A stretch of 64,000 nt of DNA from Candidatus Pelethousia sp. (lineage in GTDB: Bacteria > Bacillota > Clostridia > Christensenellales > CAG-138): NCBI GenBank assembly GCA_034928145.1, contig JAYFPE010000004.1:67223-131222 (forward strand), written 5' to 3'. This document shows positions 1 to 55,445 of this stretch, piece by piece. A program made the translations under genes and the position numbers. The notes under the pieces were generated by a model that saw only the letters and a program-made list of their open reading frames with translations, was not told the origin of the DNA and made no database searches. Position 1 is the stretch's first letter. The number at the start of each line of letters is the position of its first letter.

Positions 1-135
1 GGCAAAGCCCAAAAAGATGCGCTGTACGCTTTCGTTTATGCGCTTGCGGAAGAAAAACACCATGGCGGAACCCAGCGCGGTCATACCAAAGGTGAAGCCC
101 GTGCCGCCGGCAGCCCAAAGTAACGCTTCTTTCAT
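1..135 (-). CDS. ZIP-family (ZupT-like) metal transporter, N-terminal fragment running off the window edge
   Basis: Not in the ORF track because fewer than 60 aa lie in the window. A reverse-strand ATG at 135 gives MKEALLWAAGGTGFTFGMTALGSAMVFFFRKRINESVQRIFLGFA, a hydrophobic N-terminus of ZIP/ZupT style. The frame stays open to position 1. Confidence 0.45.
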   Translation of the reverse strand, partial: MKEALLWAAGGTGFTFGMTALGSAMVFFFRKRINESVQRIFLGFA

Positions 136-186
136 AAAAACAGAACAGTACCCTTTCGTAGAAATTAGCCTAAATAAGCCCCGCGC

Positions 187-2184
187 TTATTGCCAGCCAA
201 TGCGCACCTCCGCGCCAGCCTGGAGCGGATGCAGGAAGCCCACGGCCGCGCCGTTGCATTCCATGATGAGCTGGCCCTGGGGGTTGGCGGGATCCACCCC
301 AGCCTTTTCCAACAGGTTCATGATGAAATAACTCTGCTGCCCCGCGCTAAGCGGCAGGGAGAGGGGCCGCCCATTGAGGGTGATCTCCAGCGCGGCCGGC
401 CCCGCCTTATTTTCGGCGATTTGCGCCGCTTCGTTCTCGGCCAGTTCGGCCTCCTCCCGCGCGGCGGGCGTTTCTTGCGGCGCGGGCTGGGCCGCGGGGA
501 TGGCGGGGAGGGGCCGCACGTCAACCTTATCGCCCTGAACGATGGGCCGGGCCGGATCCGCGATCTCGCCGTTGACCAGCACGGTTGCCAAACCCTCTGC
601 AGGCAGGAAATCCGCCGCGATGGCCGTGGCGGGTTCACCGCTGCGCGCCGGGGTGATAAGGATCGCGTCCCCGGGCCGCACATCGGATTCGATGCTGGCG
701 GGCGCGCCGTTGATAGTGACCACGGCATGCTCGGGCAGACCGCCGCGAACGGTATGCGGCGCGCCGTTGAGGGTGAAGAGCAGGCTGCGGCCCGAGCGGG
801 CAACGAGTTGGGAGGATTTGTAGCCGGCCATCAGCAGCACTTCCATCAGGCGGGTGTGGCTGGCATTCAAAAGCTTGAGGCGGCGGCCGTTCACGGATAC
901 GCCGAAAAACTGGAAGCACTCCTGGGTGATGGCCGTGAGGGCGATGCCCAGGGGCGTAACGAATTCGGGGCCTGTAAGCGCGGGAAAGGCTGCGATATCC
1001 ATCCCCTTAAGGCTGCGGCGGGGGCCCACGGCCACATTCTCCGGGGCGATCTGCAAGCAGGCGGCCAGGGCCTGGCCCAGCCCGGGCACCTGGCTGCCCC
1101 CGCCGATAAGGAACACCGCAGAGGGCGGGCCGCCGTTACACGCGAGGATTTTATCCGCCACGGTACGGGCCAGCAACTCCACCGCAGGCTTGAGGATGCC
1201 GTGAATATCCTGAACCTTCGCCTCGCCGGACAGGCCCAGCACATTTTCATAGTGCAATATCTCCGCGCCGCTTGAGAGATTCTTCTTGAGGCGCTCGGCC
1301 TCGGGGAAATCAACCAAATATTCGCGGATGATGGCTTCGGTAAGCTCATCCCCGGCGATGGTGGCCATATCGTAAGAAGCCACGCGCCCATCCCGGCAGA
1401 TAGCGATATCCGAGGTGCCCGCGCCCACATCCACCAGGGCCAGGTTCAGGAGCCGCAGCTCTCTGGGGATGAGCACATTGATGGCGGCGATGGGCTCAAG
1501 CGTGAGGCTTTGAACCTCCAGCCGGCTCATATCCACGGCCGCGTAAAGCCCCTCGATCACGCTGTAGGGCAGGAAGGCGGCAATCAGCTCCACACCGACC
1601 TCGGAGCAGGTGTGCCCGGCCAGCTGGGAAACGGGCTGGCCGTCCATTGTATATTCCACGATGCTATAGCCCACGCAGTAATAGCTGCCGCCCTGGGGCT
1701 GGCCGCCTTCCTGGCGGAGCTGCTCCTGCGCCAGCTCAATGGCCTCGCCCTCGAGACCCAGCACCATATCCCGCTCCACGATGGAATGGGGCGCCGCCAA
1801 TTCCCGGCGCACGCTCGAGCGCGCCGTGCGCAGCATGCGGCCTGCGGCTGCGATGGATACCCGGCTAAGGGATGTGCGCAGGCGCGCTTCCAATCGGCGC
1901 TGCACCTCGAGGATCAGCCGCCCCACTTGGGCGATATCCTCCACCTGGCCGTCAACCATGGCGCGGCCGGGGTGTTCCATCAGCTCGTAATCCTTCACGC
2001 GAAAACCGTCCGCACCCACGCGTTCCCCTACGATGCCGATCACGGTGCGGGTGCCGATATCCAGGGCGAAGATCAGGTTTTCGCCCTGGGGACGCTTCCT
2101 GGGGCGTTCGCCGCCTGCGGACGGCTTTTTGGAGGATCGGCCCCGTTTGCCGGAACCGGTCTGTGCCTTTGCGCGCTGAGCCAT
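187..2184 (-). CDS. FtsA-like actin-fold ATPase paralogue with a basic N-terminal tail and C-terminal tandem ThiS/MoaD-like repeats
   Basis: 665-aa ORF with GGAGG 8 nt upstream of the ATG. Actin-fold motifs ALDIGTRTVIG, LVDVGAGTSDIA and FLIGGGSQVPG occur in FtsA-like order. The C-terminal ~235 aa has repeated xVNG/LNG ... GDxVxI units. The gene is not adjacent to ftsZ. Confidence 0.75.
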   Translation of the reverse strand: MAQRAKAQTGSGKRGRSSKKPSAGGERPRKRPQGENLIFALDIGTRTVIGIVGERVGADGFRVKDYELMEHPGRAMVDGQVEDIAQVGRLILEVQRRLEARLRTSLSRVSIAAAGRMLRTARSSVRRELAAPHSIVERDMVLGLEGEAIELAQEQLRQEGGQPQGGSYYCVGYSIVEYTMDGQPVSQLAGHTCSEVGVELIAAFLPYSVIEGLYAAVDMSRLEVQSLTLEPIAAINVLIPRELRLLNLALVDVGAGTSDIAICRDGRVASYDMATIAGDELTEAIIREYLVDFPEAERLKKNLSSGAEILHYENVLGLSGEAKVQDIHGILKPAVELLARTVADKILACNGGPPSAVFLIGGGSQVPGLGQALAACLQIAPENVAVGPRRSLKGMDIAAFPALTGPEFVTPLGIALTAITQECFQFFGVSVNGRRLKLLNASHTRLMEVLLMAGYKSSQLVARSGRSLLFTLNGAPHTVRGGLPEHAVVTINGAPASIESDVRPGDAILITPARSGEPATAIAADFLPAEGLATVLVNGEIADPARPIVQGDKVDVRPLPAIPAAQPAPQETPAAREEAELAENEAAQIAENKAGPAALEITLNGRPLSLPLSAGQQSYFIMNLLEKAGVDPANPQGQLIMECNGAAVGFLHPLQAGAEVRIGWQ

Positions 2185-2233
2185 AGGGGCTGCCTCCTCA
2201 TAATTATGCTTGCTAAATATATATTAGTATAAC

Positions 2234-2260
2234 ATATCGGCAGTAAATTTCCCATATTTA
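2234..2260 (-). promoter_or_regulatory. sigma-D (sigma-28) type promoter for the FtsA-like gene
   Basis: The minus strand reads TAAA-tatgggaaatttact-GCCGATAT. This is an exact match to the Bacillus sigma-D consensus TAAA-N15-GCCGATAT and lies about 50 nt upstream of the ATG at 2184. Confidence 0.7.
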
Positions 2261-2333: not shown

Positions 2334-2362
2334 TTGACTTAGGTAGGGCGGGGTTATAAAAT
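2334..2362 (+). promoter_or_regulatory. sigma-A type promoter upstream of flgB
   Basis: TTGACT (2334-2339), a 17-nt spacer, then TAAAAT (2357-2362), about 70 nt upstream of the flgB ATG. Confidence 0.5.
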
Positions 2363-2432: not shown

Positions 2433-2843
2433 ATGATCGAGAAGATGTTCACGCAGGTAGATAAGCTCAACGCGGGCATGGATGCTTCCTGGAAGCGCAG
2501 CGAGGTGATCGCGGGCAACATCACCAACAACGATACCCCGGGCTATAACCGCGCATCCGTAGCCTTCGAGGATTACTACCGCGCGGCCCTGGAGCAGGAC
2601 GCGGGCGGTTCCTTTGCCATGAAGCGCACGCGGGAAAAACATTTTGCGGGCTCTATGGAAACGGAACCGCGCATCGAAGTGCGGGTGGATGAAAGCACCA
2701 CCATGCGCATGGACGATAATAACGTCGATATCGAAAAAGAGATGGCGGATCTAGCTACCAACACGCTGTATTATTATACCCTGCAAAATAAGGTATCCAG
2801 CGAGTTCAACCAGTTGAGCACAGCCATTACGGGAGGTAGGTAA
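2433..2843 (+). CDS. flgB: flagellar basal-body rod protein FlgB
   Basis: 136 aa. The N-terminus has the rod-family signature (AGNITNNDTPGY) and there is a C-terminal heptad region. It is first in a flgB-flgC-fliE order. Confidence 0.9.
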   Translation: MIEKMFTQVDKLNAGMDASWKRSEVIAGNITNNDTPGYNRASVAFEDYYRAALEQDAGGSFAMKRTREKHFAGSMETEPRIEVRVDESTTMRMDDNNVDIEKEMADLATNTLYYYTLQNKVSSEFNQLSTAITGGR

Positions 2844-2845
2844 GC

Positions 2846-3277
2846 ATGTCGTTCCTTAAAAGCATGGATATCAGCGCCTCGGCCCTTACAGCCCAGCGCG
2901 TGCGTATGGACGTGATCGCCGAAAACCTCGCGAACATCAACACCACCCGCACGGCGGAAGGCGAGCCCTACAGGCGGCGCTATGTGGTGATGCAGCAGCG
3001 GGAGGATCAAACCTTTGCCGGCATGCTGGAGCGGGCCAAGGCCACGAGCAACGGCAACGGCGTACGGGTTACCGAAATCCGGGAGGACGAATCCCCCTTC
3101 AAGCTGGATTACGACCCCGATCACCCGGATGCGAACGAAGAGGGCTACGTGCAGATGCCCAATGTCGACCTGGTTGTGGAAATGGTGGATATGATGGCTG
3201 CCACCCGCTCCTACGAAGCCAACATCACCGCCACCAACGCCATCAAATCCATGGCGCTCAAGGCCCTAGAAATCTAA
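2846..3277 (+). CDS. flgC: flagellar basal-body rod protein FlgC
   Basis: 143 aa. Contains ASALTAQRVRMDVIAENLANINTTRT and a C-terminal SYEANITA motif typical of FlgC. Confidence 0.9.
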   Translation: MSFLKSMDISASALTAQRVRMDVIAENLANINTTRTAEGEPYRRRYVVMQQREDQTFAGMLERAKATSNGNGVRVTEIREDESPFKLDYDPDHPDANEEGYVQMPNVDLVVEMVDMMAATRSYEANITATNAIKSMALKALEI

Positions 3278-3290
3278 GGGAGGTTAGGCA

Positions 3291-3608
3291 ATGGCGATCG
3301 ATTCTCTTAATCCCGTTTCCGCGCTGGATGCGGTCAATAATGTTCTGAATGGGCGCGCCGCGGGCACGGCCAACGTATCCGACGATTCCATCCAATTCAA
3401 AGATTTTCTCACCCAAGCCATCGACCAGGCGGAACTGACCTCCGCCGATAACCAGGCTTATACGGACGCGCTGCTCATAGGCGAACTTAACGACCTGCAT
3501 GACGCGCCCATCGCCGCGCGCAAAGCTGAGCTGGCCCTGAGCCTCACGGTGCAGATCCGCGACCGGCTGGTGGATGCCTATACCGAAGTCATGCGCATGC
3601 AGGTTTAG
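3291..3608 (+). CDS. fliE: flagellar hook-basal body complex protein FliE
   Basis: 105 aa. The C-terminal QIRDRLVDAYTEVMRMQV is FliE-like, and the gene sits after flgC. Confidence 0.85.
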   Translation: MAIDSLNPVSALDAVNNVLNGRAAGTANVSDDSIQFKDFLTQAIDQAELTSADNQAYTDALLIGELNDLHDAPIAARKAELALSLTVQIRDRLVDAYTEVMRMQV

Positions 3609-3611
3609 CAT

Positions 3612-4037
3612 ATGCCCATTTCCACGCCCGCGCCCGCCCAGGCCCTGGAGCAAGGGCCGCAGATCGGCCAGATTCTGCTGCTGTTGCTCTATTTGGCGCT
3701 GATATTCGCGGGCGCATATTTTGTTACACGCTTTTTCGCGCGTACTATGCAGCGCGGCGCCTCCTTCCTCCCCGCCAAGGGCGGCAGGCTGGCGCTGGGG
3801 CGGCATATTCGCCTGGTGGATCGGCTTTCGATCGACCGGGAAAAGAGTATCCTGCTGATCGAGGCGGATAGCAAGCGCTATCTTTTGGGCGTGAGCGAGA
3901 ACGCCTTCGCCCTGCTGGAAACGAGCGACGCGCCGCCGGCGGAGGAGGCGGAGCCGCAACGCGCGTCGGTGCCCTTCCGCGATGTTTTTACGGCCTGGAA
4001 AAAGCGGGAGGAGGGTGACCATGCGCCAAAAGAATGA
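3612..4037 (+). CDS. fliO: flagellar biosynthesis protein FliO (FliZ of Bacillus)
   Basis: 141 aa with a single TM (ILLLLLYLALIFAGAYFV) followed by an IRLVDRLSIDREKSILLIEADSKRYLLGVSE block typical of FliO. It lies immediately upstream of and overlaps fliP. Confidence 0.7.
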   Translation: MPISTPAPAQALEQGPQIGQILLLLLYLALIFAGAYFVTRFFARTMQRGASFLPAKGGRLALGRHIRLVDRLSIDREKSILLIEADSKRYLLGVSENAFALLETSDAPPAEEAEPQRASVPFRDVFTAWKKREEGDHAPKE

Positions 4038-4977
4038 CCGCCCCGCCGCCCTGCCTGCCATAAGCGCCAAATTCCACGGCCCTGCCGCGCGCCGCGCCCG
4101 GTGCAGGCGCATCGCCTGCCTGCTGCTTTTGGCGATGCTGGCTGCGGTCGTGTTTGTGATGACGGGCTGCGTATCCGAGGCGGAATTGCAGGCGGCCCTG
4201 GCCGAGCGGGAAGCCGCCGAGGCCGCGGAGACGGCCGAGCCCTTGGAGCCGCTGGAGCCGATGGATGGGGCGGCGGCCGAAGCCGAAGCGGAGGCAGAAG
4301 AGACGCCGGGCATGCTAGGCACGCTCATCAGCATGCTGGGCAGCCGCTCGCAGAGCATGCAGATCGTGGCGCTGCTCACGGTGCTATCCCTCGCGCCCTC
4401 TTTGCTCATCATGCTCACCAGCTTCGTGCGGGTGGTGATGGTGCTCTCCTTTACGCGAAACGCCCTGGGCTTGCAGCAGATGCCCCCAAACCAGGTATTG
4501 GTGGGGCTGGCGCTGTTTTTAACGCTGTTTATCATGGGCCCGGTGGTGGATGAGGTCAAAACCGAAGCCTATATCCCCTATATCACGGAGCAGATTACGC
4601 TGGAGGAAGCGGTGGATCGGGGGGCCGTGCCCGTGCGCGCTTTCATGCTGCGCCAAACCCGCACGGCGGATCTGAATATGTTCTGCTCCTTTGCGGGCGA
4701 GGAGCCGCCCGCCACGGAGGAAGAAGCCTTGGAGGTGCGCATGCGCACGCTGATCCCGGCCTTCCTCACGAGCGAACTCAAGCGCTCCTTTGAGATCGGC
4801 TTCTTCATCTATATCCCCTTTATCGTGATCGATATGATCGTGGCCAGCACGCTGATGGCCATGGGCATGATGATGCTCCCGCCCATTACCATCTCGCTGC
4901 CCTTCAAGGTATTGCTGTTCGTGGTGGTGGATGGCTGGACGCTCACCATGCAGACCCTGGTTTCCGGCTTCCTGTAA
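4021..4977 (+). CDS. fliP: flagellar type III export gate protein FliP, with lipobox-like signal and acidic linker
   Basis: Start chosen at the ATG at 4021 (GGAGGG 5 nt upstream), which is internal to ORF 3982-4977. The conserved core LLTVLSLAPSLLIMLTSFVRVVMVLSFTRNALGLQQMPPNQVL is diagnostic of FliP. Confidence 0.9.
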   Translation: MRQKNDRPAALPAISAKFHGPAARRARCRRIACLLLLAMLAAVVFVMTGCVSEAELQAALAEREAAEAAETAEPLEPLEPMDGAAAEAEAEAEETPGMLGTLISMLGSRSQSMQIVALLTVLSLAPSLLIMLTSFVRVVMVLSFTRNALGLQQMPPNQVLVGLALFLTLFIMGPVVDEVKTEAYIPYITEQITLEEAVDRGAVPVRAFMLRQTRTADLNMFCSFAGEEPPATEEEALEVRMRTLIPAFLTSELKRSFEIGFFIYIPFIVIDMIVASTLMAMGMMMLPPITISLPFKVLLFVVVDGWTLTMQTLVSGFL

Positions 4978-5026
4978 TATCCGCTTGAAAGCGGCGCTGG
5001 AGCGGAAGGCGAAAAGGAGGCGGCCT

Positions 5027-5296
5027 ATGTCCCAATCAATGGTCATAACGGTTTTGCAGGATGCTATCATGGTGGTGCTCAAATGCTCCATGCCCATGAT
5101 GGCCGCGGCGCTGCTGATTGGCGTGGTCGTATCCATCTTCCAGGCCGCGACCCAGATCAGCGAGCAAACGCTGGCCTTTGTGCCCAAGATCATCGGCGTG
5201 TTCCTGGCCATTTTGGTATGCGCGGGGTATATCCTGTCCGAAACCAGCGGCCTGGTCACCCGGCTGTACGGCTACATCGGCCAGATGATCTACTAG
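5027..5296 (+). CDS. fliQ: flagellar export gate protein FliQ
   Basis: 89 aa from an internal ATG (AAGGAGG upstream). The sequence MSQSMVITVLQDAIMVVLKCSMPMMAAALLIGVVVSIFQAATQI matches the FliQ pattern. Confidence 0.9.
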   Translation: MSQSMVITVLQDAIMVVLKCSMPMMAAALLIGVVVSIFQAATQISEQTLAFVPKIIGVFLAILVCAGYILSETSGLVTRLYGYIGQMIY

Positions 5297-5300
5297 CCCT

Positions 5301-6089
5301 ATGGAGACGCTTTCGCGGCTGGCCGCAGGCGGGTTGGATTACGCGCTGCTGCTTTTTATCCGGGTGGCCGGCATGACGCTCTCTTCCCCCATTTTCGGCA
5401 GGGCGAATATCCCGGCCGCGGTGAAGATCAGCTACAGCCTGGCCCTTGCGTATTTCTTTTTTACGGTGCTGCCAACGCCCGCGCCCCTAGCCTATGGCAG
5501 CGTGCCCATTTTCGCTCTGCTGTGCGCCAAGGAGACCCTCGTGGGCCTCATCATGGGCTACCTGCTGACGCTGTTTTTCAGCGTATCCTTTTCTGCAGGC
5601 CAGCTGATCGATATGCAGATGGGTTTTGGCATGGCCAATGTGTTCGACCAGCAGTCCAACGCCAGCATCCCCATGCTGGGCAATCTGCTCAATACCATGA
5701 TGATGTTGGTTTTCATCAGCGTGGGCGGCTTTGAGCGGCTGATCGCGCTTTTGCGGATCACCTTCCTGCACATCCCCGTGGGCGCTGTAACGGTTTCCCC
5801 CGGCATTGCCTGGGTGATCGCGGAGCTGTTTTGCGAGGCCTTTGTGCTGGGGCTGCGCATGGCCCTGCCGGTGGTGATATCGGGCCTGTTGGGCGAGGCG
5901 GCCATGGGCATGCTGGTGCGCACGGTGCCGCAGATGAACGTGTTCGTGATCGGCATGCCGCTCAAGATCATCCTGGGGTTGCTAGTGATTTCCATGGTGC
6001 TGCCCATCTATTCCTCTTTGGCCGGCGGCGTGTTCGAAAGCATGTTCAGCGGCATGGAGCGGGCCTTCTCGGCCCTGATCGGCGCGTAA
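5301..6089 (+). CDS. fliR: flagellar export gate protein FliR
   Basis: 262-aa polytopic membrane protein positioned between fliQ and flhB. Confidence 0.85.
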   Translation: METLSRLAAGGLDYALLLFIRVAGMTLSSPIFGRANIPAAVKISYSLALAYFFFTVLPTPAPLAYGSVPIFALLCAKETLVGLIMGYLLTLFFSVSFSAGQLIDMQMGFGMANVFDQQSNASIPMLGNLLNTMMMLVFISVGGFERLIALLRITFLHIPVGAVTVSPGIAWVIAELFCEAFVLGLRMALPVVISGLLGEAAMGMLVRTVPQMNVFVIGMPLKIILGLLVISMVLPIYSSLAGGVFESMFSGMERAFSALIGA

Positions 6090-6092
6090 GCC

Positions 6093-7169
6093 ATGGCGCA
6101 GGAGGGAAGCGGCGGCGAACGCACGGAAAAGGCAACGCCCAAAAAGCGCAAGGACGCGCGGGAGCGGGGCCAGGTACGCAAAAGCAACGAGCTGGTCACG
6201 GCGTTGATGATGCTGCTGCTCTTTGGGGCGCTGCGCATGCTGGGGCCGGGCATGTGGGAGCGGATGGCCAGTTTCCTTCGGGCGGCGCTTTCGGGGCAGC
6301 TTTTTATGGGGGATGCCCTGGAGGCCGGGGAGGTTCCCCGTCTGCTGGTTCGGGGTTCAATCGAGCTGGCGTGGATCATGCTGCCTTTCCTGGGCGTGGC
6401 CTTTATCGGGGCCGCGGGCGCAAACCTTTTGCAGGTGGGCTTTCTGTTTTCCAGCAAGGCACTAGAGCCCAAGATGGACAGGCTCAACCCTTTAAAAGGG
6501 CTGCAGCGCATTTTTTCCGTGCGCACGCTTTACGAGCTGCTCAAGTCCATCGTTAAGATCATCATCATCAGCTATGTGGCCTATGGCAGATACATGGCAG
6601 CCATGGAGCGTTTTGGGGAAGCCGCCTGGCAGGATCCGGCCCTGGCGGCCGGGTTGATCTTGCTGCTGATAACCGATCTTGGCCTGAGCGTAGGTTTGGC
6701 CCTTTTGGTGATGGCGGGCGTGGACTATTTTTACCAGTGGTGGCGCTACGAAAAAGACCTGCGCATGACCAAATATGAGCTCAAGCTCGAGTACAAGCAG
6801 CAGGAGGGCGACCCGCAGGTGAAGGGCCGCATCAAGCAAAAGCAGCGGCAGATGGCGGCGATGCGCATGATGCAGGCCGTACCCGAGGCGGATGTGGTGA
6901 TTACCAACCCCACCCATTACGCCGTAGCCCTCAAATATGAAGAAACCGCCAAAGCTTCCGCCCCTATCGTTACGGCCAAGGGCCAGGATTATCTGGCGCG
7001 CCGCATCAAGGAGATTGCCAAGGAGAACGGGGTGGAGCTGGTTGAGAATAAAAGCGTGGCCCAAGGGCTGTATAAAATGTGCGAGATCGGCAGCGAGGTT
7101 CCCTTCGAGCTGTACCAGGCCGTAGCGGAGATACTGGCCTATGTGTACAAACTGAAAAAGGGAAGGTAG
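6093..7169 (+). CDS. flhB: flagellar export switch protein FlhB
   Basis: 358 aa. The N-terminal EKTEKATPKKRKDARERGQV motif and the NPTH autocleavage site (VITNPTHYAVAL) are present. Confidence 0.95.
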   Translation: MAQEGSGGERTEKATPKKRKDARERGQVRKSNELVTALMMLLLFGALRMLGPGMWERMASFLRAALSGQLFMGDALEAGEVPRLLVRGSIELAWIMLPFLGVAFIGAAGANLLQVGFLFSSKALEPKMDRLNPLKGLQRIFSVRTLYELLKSIVKIIIISYVAYGRYMAAMERFGEAAWQDPALAAGLILLLITDLGLSVGLALLVMAGVDYFYQWWRYEKDLRMTKYELKLEYKQQEGDPQVKGRIKQKQRQMAAMRMMQAVPEADVVITNPTHYAVALKYEETAKASAPIVTAKGQDYLARRIKEIAKENGVELVENKSVAQGLYKMCEIGSEVPFELYQAVAEILAYVYKLKKGR

Positions 7170-7182
7170 GGGAAGGGACAAT

Positions 7183-9237
7183 ATGACGAAGCTAAAGCCA
7201 CAGGACGTTATTATCGCGGTCGTGCTGCTAAGTATCGTGCTCATCATCATCCTGCCCATACCCACGGCCCTGATGGATGTGCTGCTGGTGGTCAATATCG
7301 CCGTTTCCCTGCTGGTATTGCTGATGACGGTGTATATCACGGAGCCGCTGCAATTCGCCAGCTTCCCCACCATGCTGCTGATCCTAACGCTGTTCCGCCT
7401 TTCGCTGAACATTTCGACTACCACCCTGATCTTGGGCAACAATGGCGATGCGGGCCGCGTGATCCGCACCTTTGCCCAGTTCGTCATCGGCGATAACCTG
7501 GTGGTGGGCGTTATCACTTTTTTCATCATCGTGATCGTGCAGTTCGTGGTCATCACCAGGGGCGCGGAGCGCGTGGCCGAGGTAGCCGCCCGTTTCACGT
7601 TGGACGCCATGCCGGGCAAGCAAATGGCCATCGACGCGGATCTCAACTCCGGCCTAATCGACGAGCAGGGCGCCAAGGATCGCCGCCTCAAGATCCAGCG
7701 CGAAGCGGATTTTTACGGCGCTATGGACGGCTCGAGCAAATTCGTCAAGGGCGACGCGGTGGTCGGCATCCTCATCACGCTGGTCAATATAGTGGGCGGC
7801 CTGATCATCGGCCTGATGGGCGATTCGGGCATGACCACGGCTGAGGTGATCGACACTTACCTCATCGCCAGTGTGGGCGACGGCCTTTGCTCCCAGATCC
7901 CGGCGCTGATGGTTTCCACGGCCATGGGCATTATCGTTACCAGGGCCACGTCGGATAACAACCTGGGGCGGGATCTTGCCAAGCAATTCGGCAGCCAGCC
8001 CTATATCTTCATTATTCTGGCCTGCATGCTGCTGGGCTTTGCCCTTATTCCCGGCATGCCCACGATTCCCATCCTCTTCCTGGCCGCTGGCCTGGGCGCG
8101 CTGGCCTACTTCCTTTTACAGGCGCAAAAAAAGAAAGAGGAGCAAGCGGAGCCTGAGGCCGTGGATGTACACGAGGCCGCGGCGCAGGAGATGCGAAAGC
8201 CCGAAAAGGCCACCTCCCTTTTGCAGGTAGACCTGATCAGCATGGAGCTGGGCTACGGCCTGCTGCCGCTGGTGGATGCTTCCCAGGGCGGGGATCTGTT
8301 GGAGCGGGTGGTGATGATTCGCCGCCAATGCGTAATGGATTTAGGCATCATCGTGCCGGTCATCCGCCTGCGGGACAATATCCAGCTGGGCACCAGCGAG
8401 TATGTGATCAAGATCAAGGGCGTGGAGGTTTCTCGCGGCAAGGTAATGCTGGATCATTTTCTGGCCCTCTCCACAGGCGAGGTGCTGGGCAAGGTCGAGG
8501 GCATCGAAACCGTGGAGCCCACCTTCGGCCTGCCGGCCCTTTGGGTAACGGAAGCCAACCGCGAAAAGGCTGAGCTTTTTGGCTACACCACCATCGACTT
8601 GCCCTCGGTGATCGCCACCCACATGACGGACGTGATCAAGCGCCACAGCGCGGAGCTGCTCACCAGGCAGCAGGTGCAGGTATTGGTAGATAACCTCAAG
8701 GGCCAGCAGCCGGCCCTGGTCGAGGAGGTCGTGCCCAAGCTTTTTTCCCTGGGCGAGCTGCAAAAGGTGCTGGCCGCCCTGCTCAAAGAGAACATCTCCG
8801 TGCGGGATTTGGGCACCATCCTCGAGGCGCTGGCCGACTACGGCCCCATCACGCGCGATACGGAAACGCTGGTGGAATTCGTGCGCCAAGCCCTTGGCCG
8901 GGCCATCTCCAAACGCTTTATCCCGGATGATAAGGGCCATGTGATCACGGTGGACGCGGCCGTGGAGCAGCTTTTGCTCGAGCGGGTGCGCAAGAGCGAA
9001 ACGGGCTCCTATCTGGCCCTCAACCAAAAAGAGATGCAGGGCATCTTCCTAAGCCTGCGCAACGCCACGGAAAAGGTGACGGGCATGGGCCTTACGCCCA
9101 TCGTCGTTACCTCGCCGGCCGCGCGGCGCTATTTCAAAAAGCTGACAGAGCAGATCGCGCCGGATTTTGTGGTGCTTTCTTACAGCGAGATCGGCCAGGA
9201 TACCGAAATCATTTCCGAAGGGATGGTGACCCTCTAG
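7183..9237 (+). CDS. flhA: flagellar export gate protein FlhA
   Basis: 684 aa. Conserved FlhA blocks are present (FPTMLLILTLFRLSLNISTTTLIL, DAMPGKQMAIDADL, FVKGDAV). Confidence 0.95.
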   Translation: MTKLKPQDVIIAVVLLSIVLIIILPIPTALMDVLLVVNIAVSLLVLLMTVYITEPLQFASFPTMLLILTLFRLSLNISTTTLILGNNGDAGRVIRTFAQFVIGDNLVVGVITFFIIVIVQFVVITRGAERVAEVAARFTLDAMPGKQMAIDADLNSGLIDEQGAKDRRLKIQREADFYGAMDGSSKFVKGDAVVGILITLVNIVGGLIIGLMGDSGMTTAEVIDTYLIASVGDGLCSQIPALMVSTAMGIIVTRATSDNNLGRDLAKQFGSQPYIFIILACMLLGFALIPGMPTIPILFLAAGLGALAYFLLQAQKKKEEQAEPEAVDVHEAAAQEMRKPEKATSLLQVDLISMELGYGLLPLVDASQGGDLLERVVMIRRQCVMDLGIIVPVIRLRDNIQLGTSEYVIKIKGVEVSRGKVMLDHFLALSTGEVLGKVEGIETVEPTFGLPALWVTEANREKAELFGYTTIDLPSVIATHMTDVIKRHSAELLTRQQVQVLVDNLKGQQPALVEEVVPKLFSLGELQKVLAALLKENISVRDLGTILEALADYGPITRDTETLVEFVRQALGRAISKRFIPDDKGHVITVDAAVEQLLLERVRKSETGSYLALNQKEMQGIFLSLRNATEKVTGMGLTPIVVTSPAARRYFKKLTEQIAPDFVVLSYSEIGQDTEIISEGMVTL

Positions 9238-9238
9238 T

Positions 9239-11101
9239 ATGGAAACCAAAAAGTACTATGCCGAGGATATGCCAGCCGCGATGGAACAGATCAAGCGGGA
9301 ACTGGGCGCGGACGCGATCATTATAAAAAGCCGCAAAATTAAGCAAAAATATGGCCCGCTGGGCTTGTTGCGCAAAAGCGTATATGAAGTGGTGGTCAGT
9401 TGCGATAAGAACGAGCCGCTCAATAAACGCCGGGAAATAAGCGCCCGGGAAGCCCTCTCCCAGCGCCTCACCCCGCCCGCAAACGATGCGGCCGCCAAAG
9501 CGCCGCTGGAAAAGGCCATCATCGAGCGCACGGCGGAAAAGGCCGCGCCGCAGGAATCTGCACCGCCGCCCGTACAGCCGGAGCGCTTTGCGCAGCTGAT
9601 GCAAAAGACCGTTCGCGGCCTGGTCGACGATGAAGATGATGATATGCTCCGCATTCTTTCCGCAGCCCAGGCGCAGGAGCAGCCCGCAGCCGTTACGCCT
9701 GCGTCCAAGCTGGGGGCCTACGCCACGGGCGCGCAGCAGCCCAAGGCCCCGGTGCGGCCCGCTAACGCGGCGCCCGTGCCCTCCGCCCTGGTGACCCAGG
9801 CATCCGTAAACGCGGCGCCGCTGCCCTCCGCCCTTGTAAGCCACGCGCCCGCAGCGCCTATTGCCTTTGGGCAGCCTGCAGCCGCGCAGGTAATCCCTGC
9901 GCCTGCCTCCGCCACGCTTTCCGTAAGCGATCGCGCGCCCTTGCACGGTTTCGCGTCCGCGAGCGCGCCTGACCCCGTGATGTTCGTGCAGGCCCCTGCC
10001 GCGGTCGAAGCCGCCATGCAGACCCCCGCCGCGCAGGTCCCTGCCGTGCAGGCCCCTGCCGCGCAGGCCCCTGCCGCGCATACTGCTCCCGCGCCGGCTC
10101 CCGCACAGGCGGAGGCGCCGGCCGCGCCTGTCAAGCGGGGGCGGGGCAGGCCCCGCAAGTATCCGCAGACAACGCCAGCGTCCTCGGCGCAAGCCACCCC
10201 CGCCCAGGGCGAGGCGGAAACGCTGGTGCGCCTGGCCACGCTGGAGAAGATGATATTGGATATCCGCCAGAAGCTGGGCGGCCAGGGCGAGCGGCAGGAG
10301 GCGCAAACCGCTGCGGCCAAGGCCAGGCCGGGCAGCGAGCTGAACCTCACAGCCCTGCTGGCGCGCCTGGAGGAGCAGGATGTGGATCAAACCGCGCTCA
10401 CCGCGCTGGAGGCTGCGGCCCGCTTGCGCATGGAGCAGGGTGAGAACGATTACCAAGCCATCTCCGGCGCTTTGGAGCAGATGCTGGGCAAGCCCCGCTA
10501 CATCCGGGCGTCTAAAAACAAGCCCCGCTGCATCATGCTTATCGGCCCCACCGGCGTGGGCAAAACCACAACGCTGGTCAAGCTGGTTTCCTCCTGCATC
10601 TTCGAGCGGGGGGCCAAGGTGGGCATCATCAACGCGGATGTTTTCCGCGTGGGCGCGCAGGATCAACTGGGCACTTACGCCAACATCCTCGACGTGCCCG
10701 TAACCACCATTTACGACTCGCGGGAGATTGTGGAGGCCGTGGCCGCCTTTTCGGAGCTGGATTTCGTCTTTATCGATACCAGCGGCAAGGCCCCGCAGGA
10801 TAAGGCCTACCAGGCGGAGCTGGGCCGGCTCTCCACATTGGGCGATATCCAGGAGACCTACCTCACGGTATCCAGCGCCACCTCCGGCCGGGTGTGCAGG
10901 CAGATCGTGAAGGAATACGAGAACATCGGCCCTTACCGGGTGGTGGTGACCAAGCTCGACGAAAGCGGCAGCTATGGCGCGGCGGTGAACCTCTGCCAGG
11001 CCAGCGGCCAGCCCCTTTCCTATATTACGACCGGACAGAACGTGCCCGAGGATATTTGCCGGGCGCGGGTAGACGAGATCATTGCGAGCCTGCTGAGGTA
11101 A
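9239..11101 (+). CDS. flhF: flagellar SRP-type GTPase FlhF with an expanded low-complexity N-terminal region
   Basis: 620 aa. The G domain has GPTGVGKTTT, DTSGK and TKLDE motifs. Residues ~70-370 are Ala/Pro-rich repeats containing a KRGRGRPRK AT-hook-like motif. Confidence 0.9.
   Translation: METKKYYAEDMPAAMEQIKRELGADAIIIKSRKIKQKYGPLGLLRKSVYEVVVSCDKNEPLNKRREISAREALSQRLTPPANDAAAKAPLEKAIIERTAEKAAPQESAPPPVQPERFAQLMQKTVRGLVDDEDDDMLRILSAAQAQEQPAAVTPASKLGAYATGAQQPKAPVRPANAAPVPSALVTQASVNAAPLPSALVSHAPAAPIAFGQPAAAQVIPAPASATLSVSDRAPLHGFASASAPDPVMFVQAPAAVEAAMQTPAAQVPAVQAPAAQAPAAHTAPAPAPAQAEAPAAPVKRGRGRPRKYPQTTPASSAQATPAQGEAETLVRLATLEKMILDIRQKLGGQGERQEAQTAAAKARPGSELNLTALLARLEEQDVDQTALTALEAAARLRMEQGENDYQAISGALEQMLGKPRYIRASKNKPRCIMLIGPTGVGKTTTLVKLVSSCIFERGAKVGIINADVFRVGAQDQLGTYANILDVPVTTIYDSREIVEAVAAFSELDFVFIDTSGKAPQDKAYQAELGRLSTLGDIQETYLTVSSATSGRVCRQIVKEYENIGPYRVVVTKLDESGSYGAAVNLCQASGQPLSYITTGQNVPEDICRARVDEIIASLLR
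9764..9850 (+). repeat. two ~45-nt in-frame direct repeats inside flhF
   Basis: aacgcggcgcccgtgccctccgccctggtg... is repeated as aacgcggcgccgctgccctccgcccttgta..., encoding NAAPVPSALV / NAAPLPSALV. Confidence 0.7.
10019..10078 (+). repeat. four tandem 15-nt in-frame repeats inside flhF (a further copy at 9989-10003)
   Basis: cagacccccgccgcg / caggtccctgccgtg / caggcccctgccgcg / caggcccctgccgcg, encoding (Q-x-P-A-A)n. Confidence 0.8.
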
Positions 11102-11106
11102 CGGAT

Positions 11107-11961
11107 ATGGACCAAGCGGAAAGCCTGCGCAAATTAGCCAAAGCAAAAGAGAAAAAGGGTCCCACCGTGGCCGCTGTGGCCAGCGGTAAAGGCGGCACGG
11201 GGAAAACCAGCTTTTGCATCAATTTGGCCATCGCCTTAGCCGGGTTGGGCAAATCCGCCATGATTGTGGACGCGGATTTTGGCCTCTCCAATGTGGATGT
11301 TATGCTGGACGCGCACCCAAAGCACAACATCGGCGAGGTGCTCCAGGGCTTGGTGCCCCTTTCGGAGGCCGTATGCAAGGGCCACGGCGGCATTTGGTAT
11401 GTTTCCGGCGGCAGCGGCGAGGAAGCGGTAATGCGCATCCGGCGGGATATGCTCAAAAGCCTGCAAAAGCAGATGGCCGAGTTGGGCGCGGATCTGGACT
11501 ATATCCTGATCGACTGCGGCGCGGGCGTGAATGAAACCATGCTGCGCATGATTGCCAGCGCGGATGAATGCCTGCTGGTAGTCACGCCGGAGCCCACCGC
11601 CATCACGGACGCCTTCGTGCTGCTCAAAACGCTGGCGGCCCGGCAGGAGAAGCTGGCCGTATCCTTTGTGATGAACCGCGCGGATACGCCGCTCGAGGCC
11701 ATGACCATGTCCCGCTACTTCAAAAATATCGTCAGCAAATATCTAGGGTTTGAAATGTATTTCCTGGGCCAGGTGGCCTTTGATAAAAACGTGGTAAATT
11801 CCATCAACAAGCAGATGCCCCTGATGCTCAGCTATCCCAATAGCCCTGCCGCCAAGGATATGCTACGCATCGCCGGCCAATATGCCGATGTGGAGGCCCC
11901 GCGCTCCTCCGGCGGGTTGCCTGGATTTTTTGAAAAGATAGCGATGCGATATGGAAAGTAA
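11107..11961 (+). CDS. flhG: MinD/ParA-type flagellar number regulator FlhG (YlxH/FleN)
   Basis: Internal ATG at 11107. The deviant Walker A motif AVASGKGGTGKTS is present, and the gene follows flhF. Confidence 0.85.
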   Translation: MDQAESLRKLAKAKEKKGPTVAAVASGKGGTGKTSFCINLAIALAGLGKSAMIVDADFGLSNVDVMLDAHPKHNIGEVLQGLVPLSEAVCKGHGGIWYVSGGSGEEAVMRIRRDMLKSLQKQMAELGADLDYILIDCGAGVNETMLRMIASADECLLVVTPEPTAITDAFVLLKTLAARQEKLAVSFVMNRADTPLEAMTMSRYFKNIVSKYLGFEMYFLGQVAFDKNVVNSINKQMPLMLSYPNSPAAKDMLRIAGQYADVEAPRSSGGLPGFFEKIAMRYGK

Positions 11962-12613
11962 CAATCAGAACCGGGCCCTCCCGGAAAAAACCGAATTATC
12001 CGTAGGCGCCCTGGTATCCCTCTTCGTGAACGGCAAGCGCTTGAGCAAGGAAATCCTGGAGCGGCGGGCCGAGCATCTGTTGTTGGGCGCGCTGGAGGAA
12101 AGCTGGGAAGTGCCCTTTCACCACCAAACGGCCTGCCTCGTGCAGATGCTGCCCGATCAGCGAATCCTCTTCGCGGTGCTGCGCTATGAGGAGGGTCGGG
12201 GCCGCGGCTTGGGGCGGCGGGATCTTTTCCGCCTGATCCCCGGCGGTTCCATGTATATCTGGTCCGGCCTCAACAAGATGGCCATGCATGAGTGGTGCCC
12301 TCTTAAGGTATACGATCCCTACCTGACCGAGGAGGTATTGTTGGAGGACCAGGCGTTTTTATTTGCCCTATCCGAAACAGAAGCCAGCATGATGGTGCAC
12401 AAGCCGCTGCCGCTGGGCGCCTTTGCGGATTGTACCTTCGTACTGGATGAGAAGCCGCTGGTCATGCGGGCCGTGCTGGCCCGCTGCGAAGATCTGGATG
12501 GCGGCGCGGGCTACCGGGCCCATTTCATGCTGATCGACCCACAGCTGCAGCCCCTGCTGCGCGAGTTCCTGCTGGAGGAGCAGGCTAGGCGGCTGCAAGC
12601 GGCTGTGATATGA
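11951..12613 (+). CDS. hypothetical protein, possibly a degenerate PilZ/YcgR-like flagellar protein
   Basis: 220 aa, overlapping the flhG stop. Genes between flhG and fliA are, from memory, often PilZ-type. An RRxxxR motif (RRDLFR) is present, but I cannot find a convincing DxSxxG motif. Confidence 0.4.
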   Translation: MESNNQNRALPEKTELSVGALVSLFVNGKRLSKEILERRAEHLLLGALEESWEVPFHHQTACLVQMLPDQRILFAVLRYEEGRGRGLGRRDLFRLIPGGSMYIWSGLNKMAMHEWCPLKVYDPYLTEEVLLEDQAFLFALSETEASMMVHKPLPLGAFADCTFVLDEKPLVMRAVLARCEDLDGGAGYRAHFMLIDPQLQPLLREFLLEEQARRLQAAVI

Positions 12614-15656: not shown

Positions 15657-16403
15657 TTGAAATTCCACAAGAAGGAGTTTGTTAGCGGAGTGAATTGGCC
15701 GGTCTTCGCCTTGGTAACCTATGTTTTCTTTCTGGCGTTGTTGTTGGCTGCGCTAATCCTGCGGAGCCTGCGTGACACGAAAGGCCGCTACCAAAAGCTG
15801 CTGGAAGAAAAAGAACAAAAGCTCATGGCCATGCAGTTGGATCTGGAGGATACGCTGGAGGCCCTACAGGCGCAGGCAGCTGTGCTGGAAACGGAATGGG
15901 GCGCGGCCCAGCGCCGTTCCCAGGACTCACTGGTATCCGTTCAGCAGCGCTTGCTGGAGATCCAGGGCGGCTTATCCGGCCTGCAAGGACGTATCGCCCG
16001 GCTGGAGCGCGCGCCCGGGCCGCAGGCCGCTGAACCCGCTTTAGCGGTTCGGCAGGCCGAGCTCGTTCCGCCGCAGCCGGCTCAGCGGGAGGGCCCCGTA
16101 CCGGACAGCTCCGGGGTGGATAGCCCCGGAGTGGATAGTCCCGGGGTGGGTAGTCCCGGAGTGGACCGTTCCGGGGTGGAGCGCCCCGGGCTAGAGAACT
16201 TTGATCCGGAGCGCTTCGGGGCGGAAGACGCGACTGAGCTGGAGCAGCCCAGGCAGCGGGCGCTGTCGCTGTTGCAAAGCGGCATGAGTGTGGCCCAGGT
16301 TTCGCGGGAGCTGGGATGCTCCTTTACGGAGGCCACGCTGCTTTTTGACCAATGGCGCAGGGGATATCTCAGGGAGGAACTGGAGGAAGGCCCGCCGGCA
16401 TGA
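15657..16403 (+). CDS. hypothetical single-pass membrane protein with coiled coil, PGVDS-type repeats and a C-terminal HTH-like segment
   Basis: 248-aa ORF with a TTG start (the start is uncertain). TM segment [20 protein letters not shown], followed by a heptad-rich region, then [27 protein letters not shown]. The C-terminal [26 protein letters not shown] resembles a helix-turn-helix. Confidence 0.55.
16111..16190 (+). repeat. five tandem 15-nt in-frame repeats
   Basis: ccggggtggatagcc / ccggagtggatagtc / ccggggtgggtagtc / ccggagtggaccgtt / ccggggtggagcgcc, encoding the PGVDS-type pentapeptides. Confidence 0.85.
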
Positions 16404-16444: not shown

Positions 16445-16472
16445 TAAAGTCTAAGGCGGAAAACTGCGATAT
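16445..16472 (+). promoter_or_regulatory. candidate sigma-D type promoter upstream of the rod and late genes
   Basis: TAAA (16445-16448), a 16-nt spacer, then tGCGATAT (16465-16472). The -10 element matches GCCGATAT at 6 of 8 positions and the spacer is one nt longer than consensus. Confidence 0.45.
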
Positions 16473-16531
16473 AATAATTGAGGTTTAAGAATGCCTCGGG
16501 CAGAATGGCAATGGCAGGAGGAAAAACGCGT

Positions 16532-27723: not shown

Positions 27724-28947
27724 TTATTGTTCAAACTCCTGCCGGCGCGCGCGTTCGCGCTGCGCCCTGCGCTTCGCGGCCCGCTCTTTACGGCGCTTCT
27801 CCTCCGCCGCGCGGACTGCAAGGAGTACGATAAGCAGGATAAGGAGCAGCGCGCCTGCGCCGCATATGGCGTAAAACAGCGTTGCGTTCACGCTGATTAC
27901 ACCCGACTCCGCGGGCTCTACGGACTGCTGCGGCGCGGGCGCGGGCGTTTCTACAGACTCCTCGGGCGGCAGCGTGGGCTGCACGGGCCGCGCGGGCATC
28001 ACCGCATAGCGCTGGAGGGATTGATCGGATGGGTTATAAGCATAATACCCCACCTCGCCATTGGCATTGCGCGCGTATAGAAGGTAGATATCGCCCTGCG
28101 CATCCTGCGCCTTCCACGCGGTATAATCCTTTTCGTCTATGGTCAGCGTAGTTTCCGCAAAGCCGTCGGGAAGCGGCACGCTGCCGTCGGGTTGCAGGAG
28201 GATATACGTTTTTGAAACGGAGGATACCGTTTTATAGGGGTAGAGCGTATCCGCTTGCGCGTTAAAGATATAATAGCCGCCTACGTCGCCCGAAGCGTTG
28301 GATAAGTAGAAGAGCGTGGGCGCGTCGCTATCGGCTACGATGGCTGCGGCCACCGTTTGATCGTGGTAGGTATATTCCGTCTCCTCATAGTTCGCGGGCA
28401 GCGTCACGTTTTCGAGCGTGCGCCAGATATATAGGCTCTCCGCCGCGCCCTCCACATTTTGCGCCGGAACGCCCTCTTTCGCGTAGTCGATGGGTGGCGG
28501 TGTAGGCGTTGCGGGCGCTGCGGCGACCGTTATATTCACGCTCGCGCTCGCGGCGCCTTCTTCCTTGCCGTCATAGCCCAGCACCTTTTCCAGATTGAAT
28601 TTGACCTCCGCCGTACCTGCCGCCACGGCCGTGAATGTTACACGTGCCGTTAGCGCGTCGGTTCCGCCTTTTTGGGCGGAAGCCATGCTCAAAAAGCCGT
28701 CGGAAGCGCCGCCCGCGCTTTCGGCGTAAGCGAGAAGCGCCGGGTCGTAGGTGAAAATGCCCTCCGCGACGGACATCCCCTTACCGCTCACGGTCACGGT
28801 GATCTCCACCGTATCACCCGCCTGTACGCTCGTTTTGTCCGCTGCGGCGCTTAGGCGCACATCGGCGAGTGCGGATGCCGGCGCGAGAAGCAGAAGCGCC
28901 ACGAGAAGGAACGCGGCCGCCCTTTTATATGCCAAAAAGCCTTTCAT
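27724..28947 (-). CDS. membrane-anchored cohesin-domain protein
   Basis: 407 aa. Signal peptide (LLVALLLLAPASALA), then a cohesin-like module (VRLSAAADKTSVQAGDTVEITVTVSG...GIFTYDPALL...VTFTAVAAGTAEVKF). A Pro/Thr linker leads to a middle domain with an internal duplication (GDVGGYYIFNAQADTLYPY / GEVGYYAYNPSDQSLQRY). The C-terminus has a TM segment and an Arg/Lys/Glu-rich tail. Confidence 0.7.
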   Translation of the reverse strand: MKGFLAYKRAAAFLLVALLLLAPASALADVRLSAAADKTSVQAGDTVEITVTVSGKGMSVAEGIFTYDPALLAYAESAGGASDGFLSMASAQKGGTDALTARVTFTAVAAGTAEVKFNLEKVLGYDGKEEGAASASVNITVAAAPATPTPPPIDYAKEGVPAQNVEGAAESLYIWRTLENVTLPANYEETEYTYHDQTVAAAIVADSDAPTLFYLSNASGDVGGYYIFNAQADTLYPYKTVSSVSKTYILLQPDGSVPLPDGFAETTLTIDEKDYTAWKAQDAQGDIYLLYARNANGEVGYYAYNPSDQSLQRYAVMPARPVQPTLPPEESVETPAPAPQQSVEPAESGVISVNATLFYAICGAGALLLILLIVLLAVRAAEEKRRKERAAKRRAQRERARRQEFEQ

Positions 28948-28961
28948 ACCTCAATACCCCC

Positions 28962-30701: not shown

Positions 30702-31040
30702 GATATGCCTCCCATTCTTTCGTATTCGGGGCGTTTCTACAACTGTCTTATTTATATTACCTTTTTTCACTGGCAAAGGTCAACGGCGCCACCCCCCACA
30801 AAGGCCGTTTTCAGGCGCTTGTTCTATGAACTTTTGATGAATTCGATTTTATACAATCTGTTCGCTTTGCGGGATAATGGCGTTTGTGAAAATGGAATTG
30901 CCTTCACAATGGATCTCATGTCGCCTCGGTCCTCAAACGATCCGCTCGAAGCAACTCTTTATATCAATCATATTCTTTATCAAAATTCGACTAAAATAAA
31001 CTGAAATAGCCGGAAAACACCACAATACTCTATAATTCCT

Positions 31041-31066
31041 TAACTTTTCTCGGGGAATCCCGATAT
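31041..31066 (+). promoter_or_regulatory. candidate sigma-D type promoter upstream of the chemoreceptor gene
   Basis: TAAC, a 14-nt spacer, then cCCGATAT (31059-31066). The -10 element is near-consensus but the -35 element and spacing are weaker. It lies ~36 nt upstream of the ATG. Confidence 0.4.
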
Positions 31067-53240: not shown

Positions 53241-53278
53241 CCGCCCTAAAATCATCATAAATCAAGGAGGAAACACGC

Positions 53279-54079: not shown

Positions 54080-54088
54080 AAGTATGTA

Positions 54089-54126
54089 CCGAGGGCCGAC
54101 AGCTAGCACTTGCTGCCGGCCCTCGG
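54089..54126 (+). terminator. strong intercistronic hairpin, possibly a partial terminator
   Basis: CCGAGGGCCGACAGC-tagcactt-GCTGCCGGCCCTCGG (14 of 15 bp), followed 6 nt later by GGTTTTGGG. Confidence 0.5.
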
Positions 54127-54174
54127 CAATTGGTTTTGGGATCCCCCACAAAGAGAGCAATGGAGGAATGAAAC

Positions 54175-55380: not shown

Positions 55381-55445
55381 GGGGGAGGGGTGAGGCGTCG
55401 CCGGCGCCCTGTCGCGCCGGCCGCCGCCCTTGTGAGGTAAAAGGT

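Follow-up and report, generated by a model that had tools for sequence, protein, structure and literature searches.

Introduction

The actin-like ATPases FtsA and PilM bind short peptides of membrane partners. How the number and placement of flagella, and the chemoreceptor arrays, are controlled in Clostridia is poorly understood. Most Clostridia have ftsA together with ftsZ in the DCW1 cluster (PMC8136486), and in C. beijerinckii the two genes are direct neighbours (PMC6362236); in Lachnospiraceae another actin-superfamily gene, mbl, lies in a motility locus of the order mbl-flgF-flgG-flgJ (bioRxiv 10.1101/2025.07.18.665615). The subject of this report is a gene divergent from flgB in a stretch of 64,000 nucleotides (nt) from Candidatus Pelethousia sp. 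(GenBank assembly GCA_034928145.1, contig JAYFPE010000004.1, positions 67,223 to 131,222 of the forward strand), the whole of which is referred to here as the window. The gene encodes a protein of 665 amino acids (aa) in which an FtsA-like ATPase is joined to a tail of ubiquitin-like beta-grasp units.

This protein is an FtsA paralogue with a poly-beta-grasp tail. Its family, which is widespread in and specific to the Clostridia and so far uncharacterised, is a large side branch of the actin-like ATPases FtsA and PilM. The best explanation overall is probably that of an FtsA-like ATPase which carries a beta-grasp tail, is expressed in this lineage partly under sigma-D, and acts as a scaffold for motility, chemotaxis or cyclic di-GMP (c-di-GMP) signalling. 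The combination of an FtsA-type ATPase with ubiquitin-like docking modules offers a testable candidate for a missing organiser of the motility machinery in Clostridia.

Architecture of the FtsA-like protein

The gene and the parts of its product are arranged as follows, the borders of the beta-grasp units being assigned from secondary structure and conserved motifs.

187..2184, minus strand: coding sequence of the 665-aa FtsA-like/beta-grasp protein, ATG start, stop codon at 187..189
2193..2199, minus strand: GAGGAGG ribosome-binding site, 8 nt 5' of the ATG, read from the sequence
2080..2184, minus strand: residues 1-35, basic disordered N-terminal tail (11 Lys/Arg against 2 Asp/Glu; predicted local distance difference test score, pLDDT, 40-66)
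919..2079, minus strand: residues 36-422, FtsA-type actin-like ATPase core with invariant nucleotide-binding motifs, assigned by Foldseek and profiles
646..909, minus strand: residues 426-513, beta-grasp unit A, ThiS-like with an extra hairpin (pLDDT 96-98; Foldseek matches to ubiquitin and ThiS)
505..645, minus strand: residues 514-560, partial beta-grasp unit B, shorter than in most homologues (Ub-Mut7C at 533-559)
397..504, minus strand: residues 561-596, disordered Pro/Ala/Glu-rich linker (pLDDT below 50)
190..396, minus strand: residues 597-665, beta-grasp unit C, a complete ThiS-like domain that ends in RIGWQ

A first-pass annotation, made from the sequence alone, had proposed a minus-strand open reading frame (ORF) of this length divergent from flgB (2433..2843), with FtsA-style actin-fold motifs, a Lys/Arg-rich N-terminal tail and two or three ThiS/MoaD-like units, and each of these features is borne out by the homologues, the profile matches or the structural models. 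The full-length AlphaFold2 model, built on an alignment of 65 sequences, has a mean pLDDT of 86. Three nucleotide-binding motifs are invariant in 65 of 65 aligned sequences: phosphate-1 (DIGT; D42, G44, T45), phosphate-2 (DVGAGTSD; D252 to D259) and the adenosine motif (GGGS; G361 to S364). Because these motifs are invariant, the protein is expected to bind nucleotide.

The core overlays FtsA more closely than any other structure. Foldseek placed residues 36-422 nearest to FtsA (7q6f, 7q6i and 1e4g), with target-normalised template modelling (TM) scores of 0.80-0.85 over about 400 aligned columns and a sequence identity of 16-21%; this is an overlay, taken as a whole, on FtsA structures that carry the 1C subdomain. 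PilM (TM 0.62-0.77), MreB (TM 0.51-0.61) and EutJ all matched less well. Supporting this placement, the family profile finds FtsA as its best match in the PDB (6e-20), spanning the whole core, and Pfam matches FtsA (PF14450) and PilM_2 over residues 222-387 of the window protein.

The basic tail that precedes the core varies from 3 to 64 aa among homologues and is usually, though not always, rich in Lys/Arg. Many homologues (for example P0036, P0038, P0045 and P0065), the window protein not among them, carry in this tail a short conserved motif, K-[VI]-[IV]-K-L-[ED]-K, which could be a partner-binding or self-binding peptide.

The C-terminal region, modelled separately as residues 426-665 at a pLDDT of 90, adopts the beta-grasp fold in this prediction, as the first-pass annotation had anticipated. 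Its best PDB matches in Foldseek are linear tetra-ubiquitin, di-ubiquitin, ISG15, a bacterial multi-ubiquitin filament (Methylobacterium, 9d5b) and ThiS, of which the ThiS structures 3cwi and 1zud match at target-normalised TM scores of 0.66-0.67. Units of the form xVNG...GDxVxI are present in this region, and Ub-Mut7C is matched at residues 533-559 with an E-value of 2.8e-5; among the 65 family members, profile matches were found to Ub-Mut7C in 55, to ThiS in 43 (the strongest ThiS E-value among the homologues being 2e-14) and to TGS in 23. Conserved residues are N432, N473, G474, N492, G505 and D506 in unit A, and N604, D631, P635, G637, N644, G645, G657 and D658 in unit C. The tail is thus, in the model, a tandem array of ThiS/ubiquitin-like beta-grasp units, two of them full and one truncated, with a flexible linker. 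Its length (241 aa) is below the family median for the C-terminal region (295 aa), and a relative of 93% identity has a 27-aa insertion in the Pro/Ala/Glu linker relative to the window protein.

None of the beta-grasp units ends in Gly-Gly, and the protein itself terminates in RIGWQ, its C-terminus being in the model a strand of a beta-grasp domain (residues 659-664). Because no unit ends in Gly-Gly, the tail is predicted to consist of structural beta-grasp modules and to be neither a carrier of sulfur nor a conjugatable protein of the ubiquitin-like kind.

Family, annotation and literature

The protein is not a singular oddity. The first-pass annotation knew of no described protein of this kind, and none was found here. 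With a word-indexed search, over 7,900 homologues were obtained, mainly of 640-800 aa and from Clostridia, and an exhaustive search of 1.84 billion cluster representatives returned 533 at E<=1e-30, so that the family size of about 533 refers to clusters at 50% identity. The FtsA-like/beta-grasp architecture is widespread rather than unique. Among its named carriers are Anaerotruncus colihominis, Ruminiclostridium josui, R. papyrosolvens, R. sufflavum, Acetivibrio clariflavus, Caproiciproducens galactitolivorans, Petroclostridium xylanilyticum, Caloranaerobacter azorensis, Defluviitalea phaphyphila, Clostridium thermobutyricum and Epulopiscium.

Databases name the family members variously as FtsA, 'FtsA domain-containing', rod shape-determining protein, MreB, PilM or DnaK. 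Because the family fails the defining tests for FtsA and for PilM (see below), these labels are probably wrong and the misannotation systematic; thousands of clostridial proteins now called 'cell division protein FtsA', 'rod shape-determining protein' or 'PilM' constitute a separate family. A literature search found no description of it. More specifically, the fusion of an actin-like ATPase to beta-grasp units is not among the architectures of the Aravind-group beta-grasp surveys (PMC1779556, PMC1949818), and the family is not described in the Firmicutes-wide survey of division genes (PMC8136486).

The closest metagenomic relatives (L088-L092, 85-94% identity) all come from ENA assemblies labelled 'fermentation metagenome', a hint of where the window organism may live.

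Promoter region

Two overlapping promoter-like elements precede the gene, and a third faces the flgB operon.

2234..2260, minus strand: sigma-D/sigma-28-type motif TAAA-N15-GCCGATAT, 12 of 12 positions
2226..2254, minus strand: candidate sigma-A promoter overlapping the sigma-D motif (ATGGGAA at 2254..2248; extended -10 TGtTATACT at 2234..2226)
2334..2362, plus strand: sigma-A-type promoter of the flgB operon, TTGACT-17-TAAAAT, in a block kept in relatives including L001
12633..13418, plus strand: gene for a FliA/WhiG (sigma-D) sigma factor, which presumably reads the motif (TIGR02479, 221.5 bits against a cutoff of 189.6)

The first-pass annotation had placed an exact sigma-D consensus at 2260-2234, about 50 nt upstream of the gene, and this is correct: the motif agrees at all 12 positions with TAAA-N15-GCCGATAT, which we take to be the Bacillus subtilis sigma-D consensus, and its -10 element ends 49 nt 5' of the ATG. 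It is the sole site in the window at zero or one mismatch, and in dinucleotide shuffles an exact motif arose in 0 of 100 and a match with one mismatch in 21 of 100. The machinery for reading a sigma-28-type promoter is encoded 10 kb away, since the sigma factor passes the FliA_WhiG cutoff; its ORF also matches Pfam sigma-70 regions 2 and 4, and the FlgM match within the window is weak. Two further sites of similar form lie in the window, TTAA-N15-CCCGATAT at 31040..31066 (plus strand), well placed about 35 nt 5' of a gene for a methyl-accepting chemotaxis protein (MCP), and TAAA-N16-TGCGATAT at 16445..16472 (plus strand), just 5' of the rod-gene ORF at 16478; upstream of the flagellin gene at 23567 there is none with up to two mismatches. 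We know of no actin-like protein in the B. subtilis sigma-D regulon.

Of the sequences compared, the window and L085 (93% protein identity) alone have the exact motif. L087, L088, L090 and L091, with 89-93% protein identity, keep it at 10 of 12 positions (TAAT...GTCGATAT), and a relative of 66% identity, in which the gene stands 43 nt after cheW-CZB, has an operon with only a 9 of 12 site; the metagenome scan gave just five close relatives, which limits the depth of this footprint. The segment ATGGGAA and the segment ATATGnTATACT directly downstream are invariant in all seven aligned sequences, including L086, and the GAGGAGG ribosome-binding site likewise shows no variation among seven aligned related sequences. 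By comparison with the sigma-70 consensus, TGnTATACT (2234..2226) may be read as the extended -10 element of a sigma-A promoter, with TGGGAA at the -35 position 17 nt upstream.

Thus, the motif is exact and well placed, as first claimed, while the accompanying claim that it drives the gene is unproven, given that a better conserved sigma-A-type element overlaps it. Sigma-D-dependent expression of the window gene has, in our judgement, slightly the better of the odds. The coincidence of a perfect sigma-D motif with a conserved sigma-A-type promoter presents a case for studying the recruitment of a gene into the flagellar regulon.

Gene neighbourhoods across the family

The neighbourhoods of 87 loci were compared, of which 80 are species-level loci from GTDB genomes and 7 come from other assemblies; immediate neighbours were identified by clustering and Pfam and mapped on a neighbour-joining tree of the core domain. 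The following arrangements recur.

About 12 loci: divergent cheA-W-R-B, then FlhB-C-like, PilZ (~213 aa), the gene and EAL-HDOD, often with an MCP or flagellin; includes A. colihominis
About 11 loci: MCP, then the gene
About 2 loci: cheB, then the gene, then flgN-flgK-flgL-fliW-csrA
About 7 loci: divergent flgB operon, in some cases with a cheW-CZB gene in between; the clade of the window, down to 45% identity
About 25 loci: glgA, nth, the gene, then GGDEF-GAF or DUF2225
About 6 loci: TrkA, TrkA, then the gene
About 9 loci: the gene, then GH26

By our own tally, about 45 of the 87 loci have an immediate neighbour involved in motility, chemotaxis or c-di-GMP signalling, and these fall into at least four distinct, clade-specific arrangements. 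In a tblastn search with flagellar and chemotaxis proteins, 25 of 84 species-level loci had motility genes other than MCP genes at a distance of up to 10 kb. The gap to a same-strand upstream neighbour is mostly below 60 nt, and some ORFs overlap, although these distances are approximate because they rest on longest-ORF coordinates. Because it recurs in several different arrangements, the association constitutes genuine guilt-by-association evidence that links the family to motility and c-di-GMP signalling. Of the two comparisons proposed in the first-pass annotation, that of orthologue neighbourhoods independently supports a motility link; in that of promoters the sigma-D motif does not emerge as a feature of the family.

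In an Oscillospiraceae clade the gene is part of a conserved four-gene module, an FlhB-C-terminal-like gene (~100 aa), PilZ (~213 aa), the FtsA-like gene and EAL-HDOD, which is divergent from cheA-cheW-cheR-cheB (L040, 9054..13556; also L034, L035, L053, L076 and L081) and in which the PilZ ORF reaches up to, or into, the beginning of the FtsA-like gene. In the MCP clade, a FliL-like match of the downstream neighbour (23 bits against a cutoff of 179) was discarded as unreliable.

Proposed function and alternative explanations

It is from gene context only that we infer a function for the FtsA-like protein. Its gene most likely belongs, for at least a part of its expression, to the late flagellar regulon, the sigma-D motif being placed for a start about 40 nt 5' of the ATG, and the overlapping, better conserved extended -10 promoter of sigma-A type would probably provide basal or ancestral expression. 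Judged by its neighbourhoods, the protein is most likely an ATP-dependent scaffold or short polymer, with beta-grasp modules that would serve as docking sites for proteins of motility, chemotaxis or c-di-GMP signalling. In this way it would govern how flagella or chemoreceptor arrays are assembled, where they are positioned or how active they are. A narrower version can be offered as a tentative proposal, unlikely to be right in every part: a motility-dedicated FtsA-like actin, forming an ATP-dependent, membrane-proximal polymer or scaffold, would use its poly-ubiquitin-like tail to recruit partners of the PilZ, EAL-HDOD, GGDEF, MCP or CheW type and, responding to c-di-GMP, would place or gate flagella or chemoreceptor arrays, here as a part of the sigma-D late flagellar regulon. 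The roles in septation, chaining or flagellar placement suggested in the first-pass annotation remain speculation, and chemotaxis and c-di-GMP signalling have at least equal support from the gene context; as a whole, that annotation's interpretation is partly supported.

Several observations weigh against a motility scaffold under sigma-D control. The sigma-D motif has decayed to 7 of 12 positions (TTAG...TAGAATAT) in L086, a relative of 80% identity, while TGnTATACT remains invariant there. A strict scan (CCGATA exact and at least 3 of 4 positions in the -35 element) of the 450 nt upstream of 82 orthologues gave 1 match, which is the background level, and a relaxed, operon-aware scan at a score of 9 or more found sites in 4 of 56 targets as against 23 of 269 control intergenic regions, and hence no enrichment. 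Three sizeable clades, which adjoin nth/glgA, TrkA or GH26, lack a motility neighbour, and the share of a genome found 10 kb or less from flagellar or che clusters (5-8%), with which the neighbourhood counts are to be compared, is an estimate from typical gene counts rather than a measured background. Sigma-D control as a trait of the whole family was dropped, as neither scan showed enrichment.

Several of these observations speak for an alternative in which the sigma-D match is an overlay of recent or chance origin, transcription starts from the conserved extended -10 promoter of sigma-A type, the adjacency to flgB reflects only local synteny, and the protein is a housekeeping actin-like scaffold unrelated to motility. 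The invariance of ATGGGAA and TGnTATACT in the aligned relatives, the want of a family-wide enrichment of the sigma-D motif and the clades with nth, TrkA and GH26 are all as such an overlay would have them. However, an exact match at 12 of 12 positions is very unlikely to arise by chance, the motif stands at a correct distance from the start codon in a locus that encodes FliA, and neighbours from motility, chemotaxis and c-di-GMP signalling in at least four independent arrangements are not explained by simple synteny. We therefore regard the overlay as a serious alternative that has nevertheless a minor share of the probability. The most economical reading of the promoter is that of an ancestral sigma-A-type promoter with a perfect sigma-D site acquired or retained in the lineage of the window.

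The window protein might instead be the real FtsA of the organism, moved away from ftsZ and extended by additional domains. FtsA is indeed its closest relative in structure and in sequence, and many databases give family members that name. However, the protein scores far below both FtsA equivalog cutoffs (TIGR01174, 61.8 bits against 175.85; PRK09472, 39.5 against 409), and its C-terminus is a beta-grasp domain, no amphipathic membrane-targeting helix being present there in the model. Nor is the gene next to ftsZ, as the first-pass annotation had noted: no ftsZ or ftsA of the division cluster (dcw) was found among the Pfam-scanned ORFs of the 64-kb window, and the FtsZ families are absent from the commonest immediate-neighbour families of the 87 loci, which contrasts with the placement of ftsA with ftsZ in most Clostridia (PMC8136486) and its adjacency in C. 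beijerinckii (PMC6362236). No second FtsA-like gene was found within the 87 loci. Of four testable defining features of the division protein, the fold is present and the profile score, the helix and the ftsZ neighbour are not; the window protein does not qualify as division FtsA, and a relocated FtsA is improbable.

A platform protein akin to the PilM-type ATPase of type IV pilus assembly has even less to recommend it. The PilM_2 profile passes its gathering cutoff (42 bits against 27) and some sources label family members PilM, but the more specific TIGR01175 profile is not reached (52.7 bits against a cutoff of 133), the structure is closer to FtsA than to PilM, and pilN, pilO, pilB, pilC and pilT are not among the commonest neighbour families.

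Least probable of all is that the repeats serve as ThiS/MoaD-like sulfur carriers or as a conjugatable poly-ubiquitin of a Bub/polyUbl-type system, since the ThiS profile matches of the homologues and the Foldseek matches to ThiS and to the multi-ubiquitin filament 9d5b are set against a protein that ends in RIGWQ and has no unit ending in Gly-Gly, against commonest neighbour families that contain no E1, E2, JAB, thiF, thiG, moeB or moaE, and against PADLOC defence models that gave just one negligible match (E=0.0013).

Other features of the window

On the plus strand from flgB the window encodes flgB, flgC, fliE, fliO, fliP, fliQ, fliR, flhB, flhA, flhF and flhG, followed by a 220-aa ORF, the FliA/WhiG sigma factor, FapA and two rod genes, and then by YvyF-like and FlgM-like genes, flgN, flgK, flgL, DUF6470, fliW, csrA and flagellin. 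The flgB operon (2433..11961) thus runs from flgB-flgC-fliE directly into fliO-P-Q-R-flhB-flhA-flhF-flhG, the usual middle block from fliF to fliN with motAB being absent from this locus, and the same order is seen in L001, L085 and L086 as far as each locus reaches. Two plus-strand ORFs within the flagellar locus, 11951..12613 (220 aa) and 15657..16403 (248 aa), have no Pfam or NCBIfam match.

On the other side, at 133..186 (minus strand), a ZIP-family transporter gene begins 51 nt past the stop codon of the FtsA-like gene. Because the same neighbour is found in L085 and L086, and because a terminator search and RNA folding of the interval between the stop codon and the transporter gene gave nothing convincing, the two genes may be co-transcribed.

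The remainder of the window is devoted to sugar and purine metabolism. An unusual pair lies at 27724..30776 (minus strand), where a SpoIID-domain protein with a type I dockerin stands beside a protein with weak cohesin and DUF11 matches. The cluster at 49346..58615 (plus strand), with AllH-like and AllG-like (oxamate carbamoyltransferase) proteins, a CoA ligase, a cyclase, an amidohydrolase and subunits of a xanthine-dehydrogenase-type molybdoenzyme, is probably a locus for purine or allantoin degradation. Rfam gave no match over the whole window, as for example to a c-di-GMP riboswitch before flgB, and no tRNA genes were found in it.

Comparison with known systems

The window protein resembles FtsA (TIGR01174; PDB 7q6f, 1e4g and 3wqt) in its overall actin fold, its intact ATP-binding motifs and its best profile match in the PDB. 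It differs in a hidden Markov model score of about one third of the FtsA equivalog cutoff, in about 240 aa of beta-grasp repeats where FtsA has its C-terminal amphipathic membrane helix, in an added basic N-terminal tail, and in neighbours that are motility, chemotaxis and c-di-GMP genes instead of ftsZ. PilM, which has an FtsA-like fold, shares the PilM_2 match and acts as a cytoplasmic scaffold that binds a short peptide of a membrane partner, provides a plausible working analogy, although it is a weaker structural match than FtsA, and the window protein falls below the TIGR01175 cutoff and its family lacks pilus genes among the commonest neighbours.

With ThiS/MoaD and the bacterial polyUbl proteins (Iyer et al. 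2006, PMC1779556) the tail shares the beta-grasp fold and the VNG...GDxhxh signature, and the tandem arrangement of its units is similar to that of poly-ubiquitin; in contrast to these proteins, the window protein is fused to an actin-like ATPase, lacks a terminal Gly-Gly and has no E1, JAB or sulfur-transfer families among its commonest neighbours. The upstream motif resembles the promoters of sigma-D/FliA regulons in agreeing at 12 of 12 positions, in a distance from the start codon that falls within the suitable 20-60 nt, and in the presence of a cognate sigma factor gene 10 kb away, and differs from them in being lineage-specific and in overlapping a sigma-A-type element. Lastly, the mbl gene of Lachnospiraceae offers a parallel within the Firmicutes, as it too belongs to the actin superfamily and keeps a conserved place beside flagellar genes; however, Mbl is a true MreB paralogue without a beta-grasp tail, whereas the window protein is FtsA-like and is matched much less well by MreB structures.

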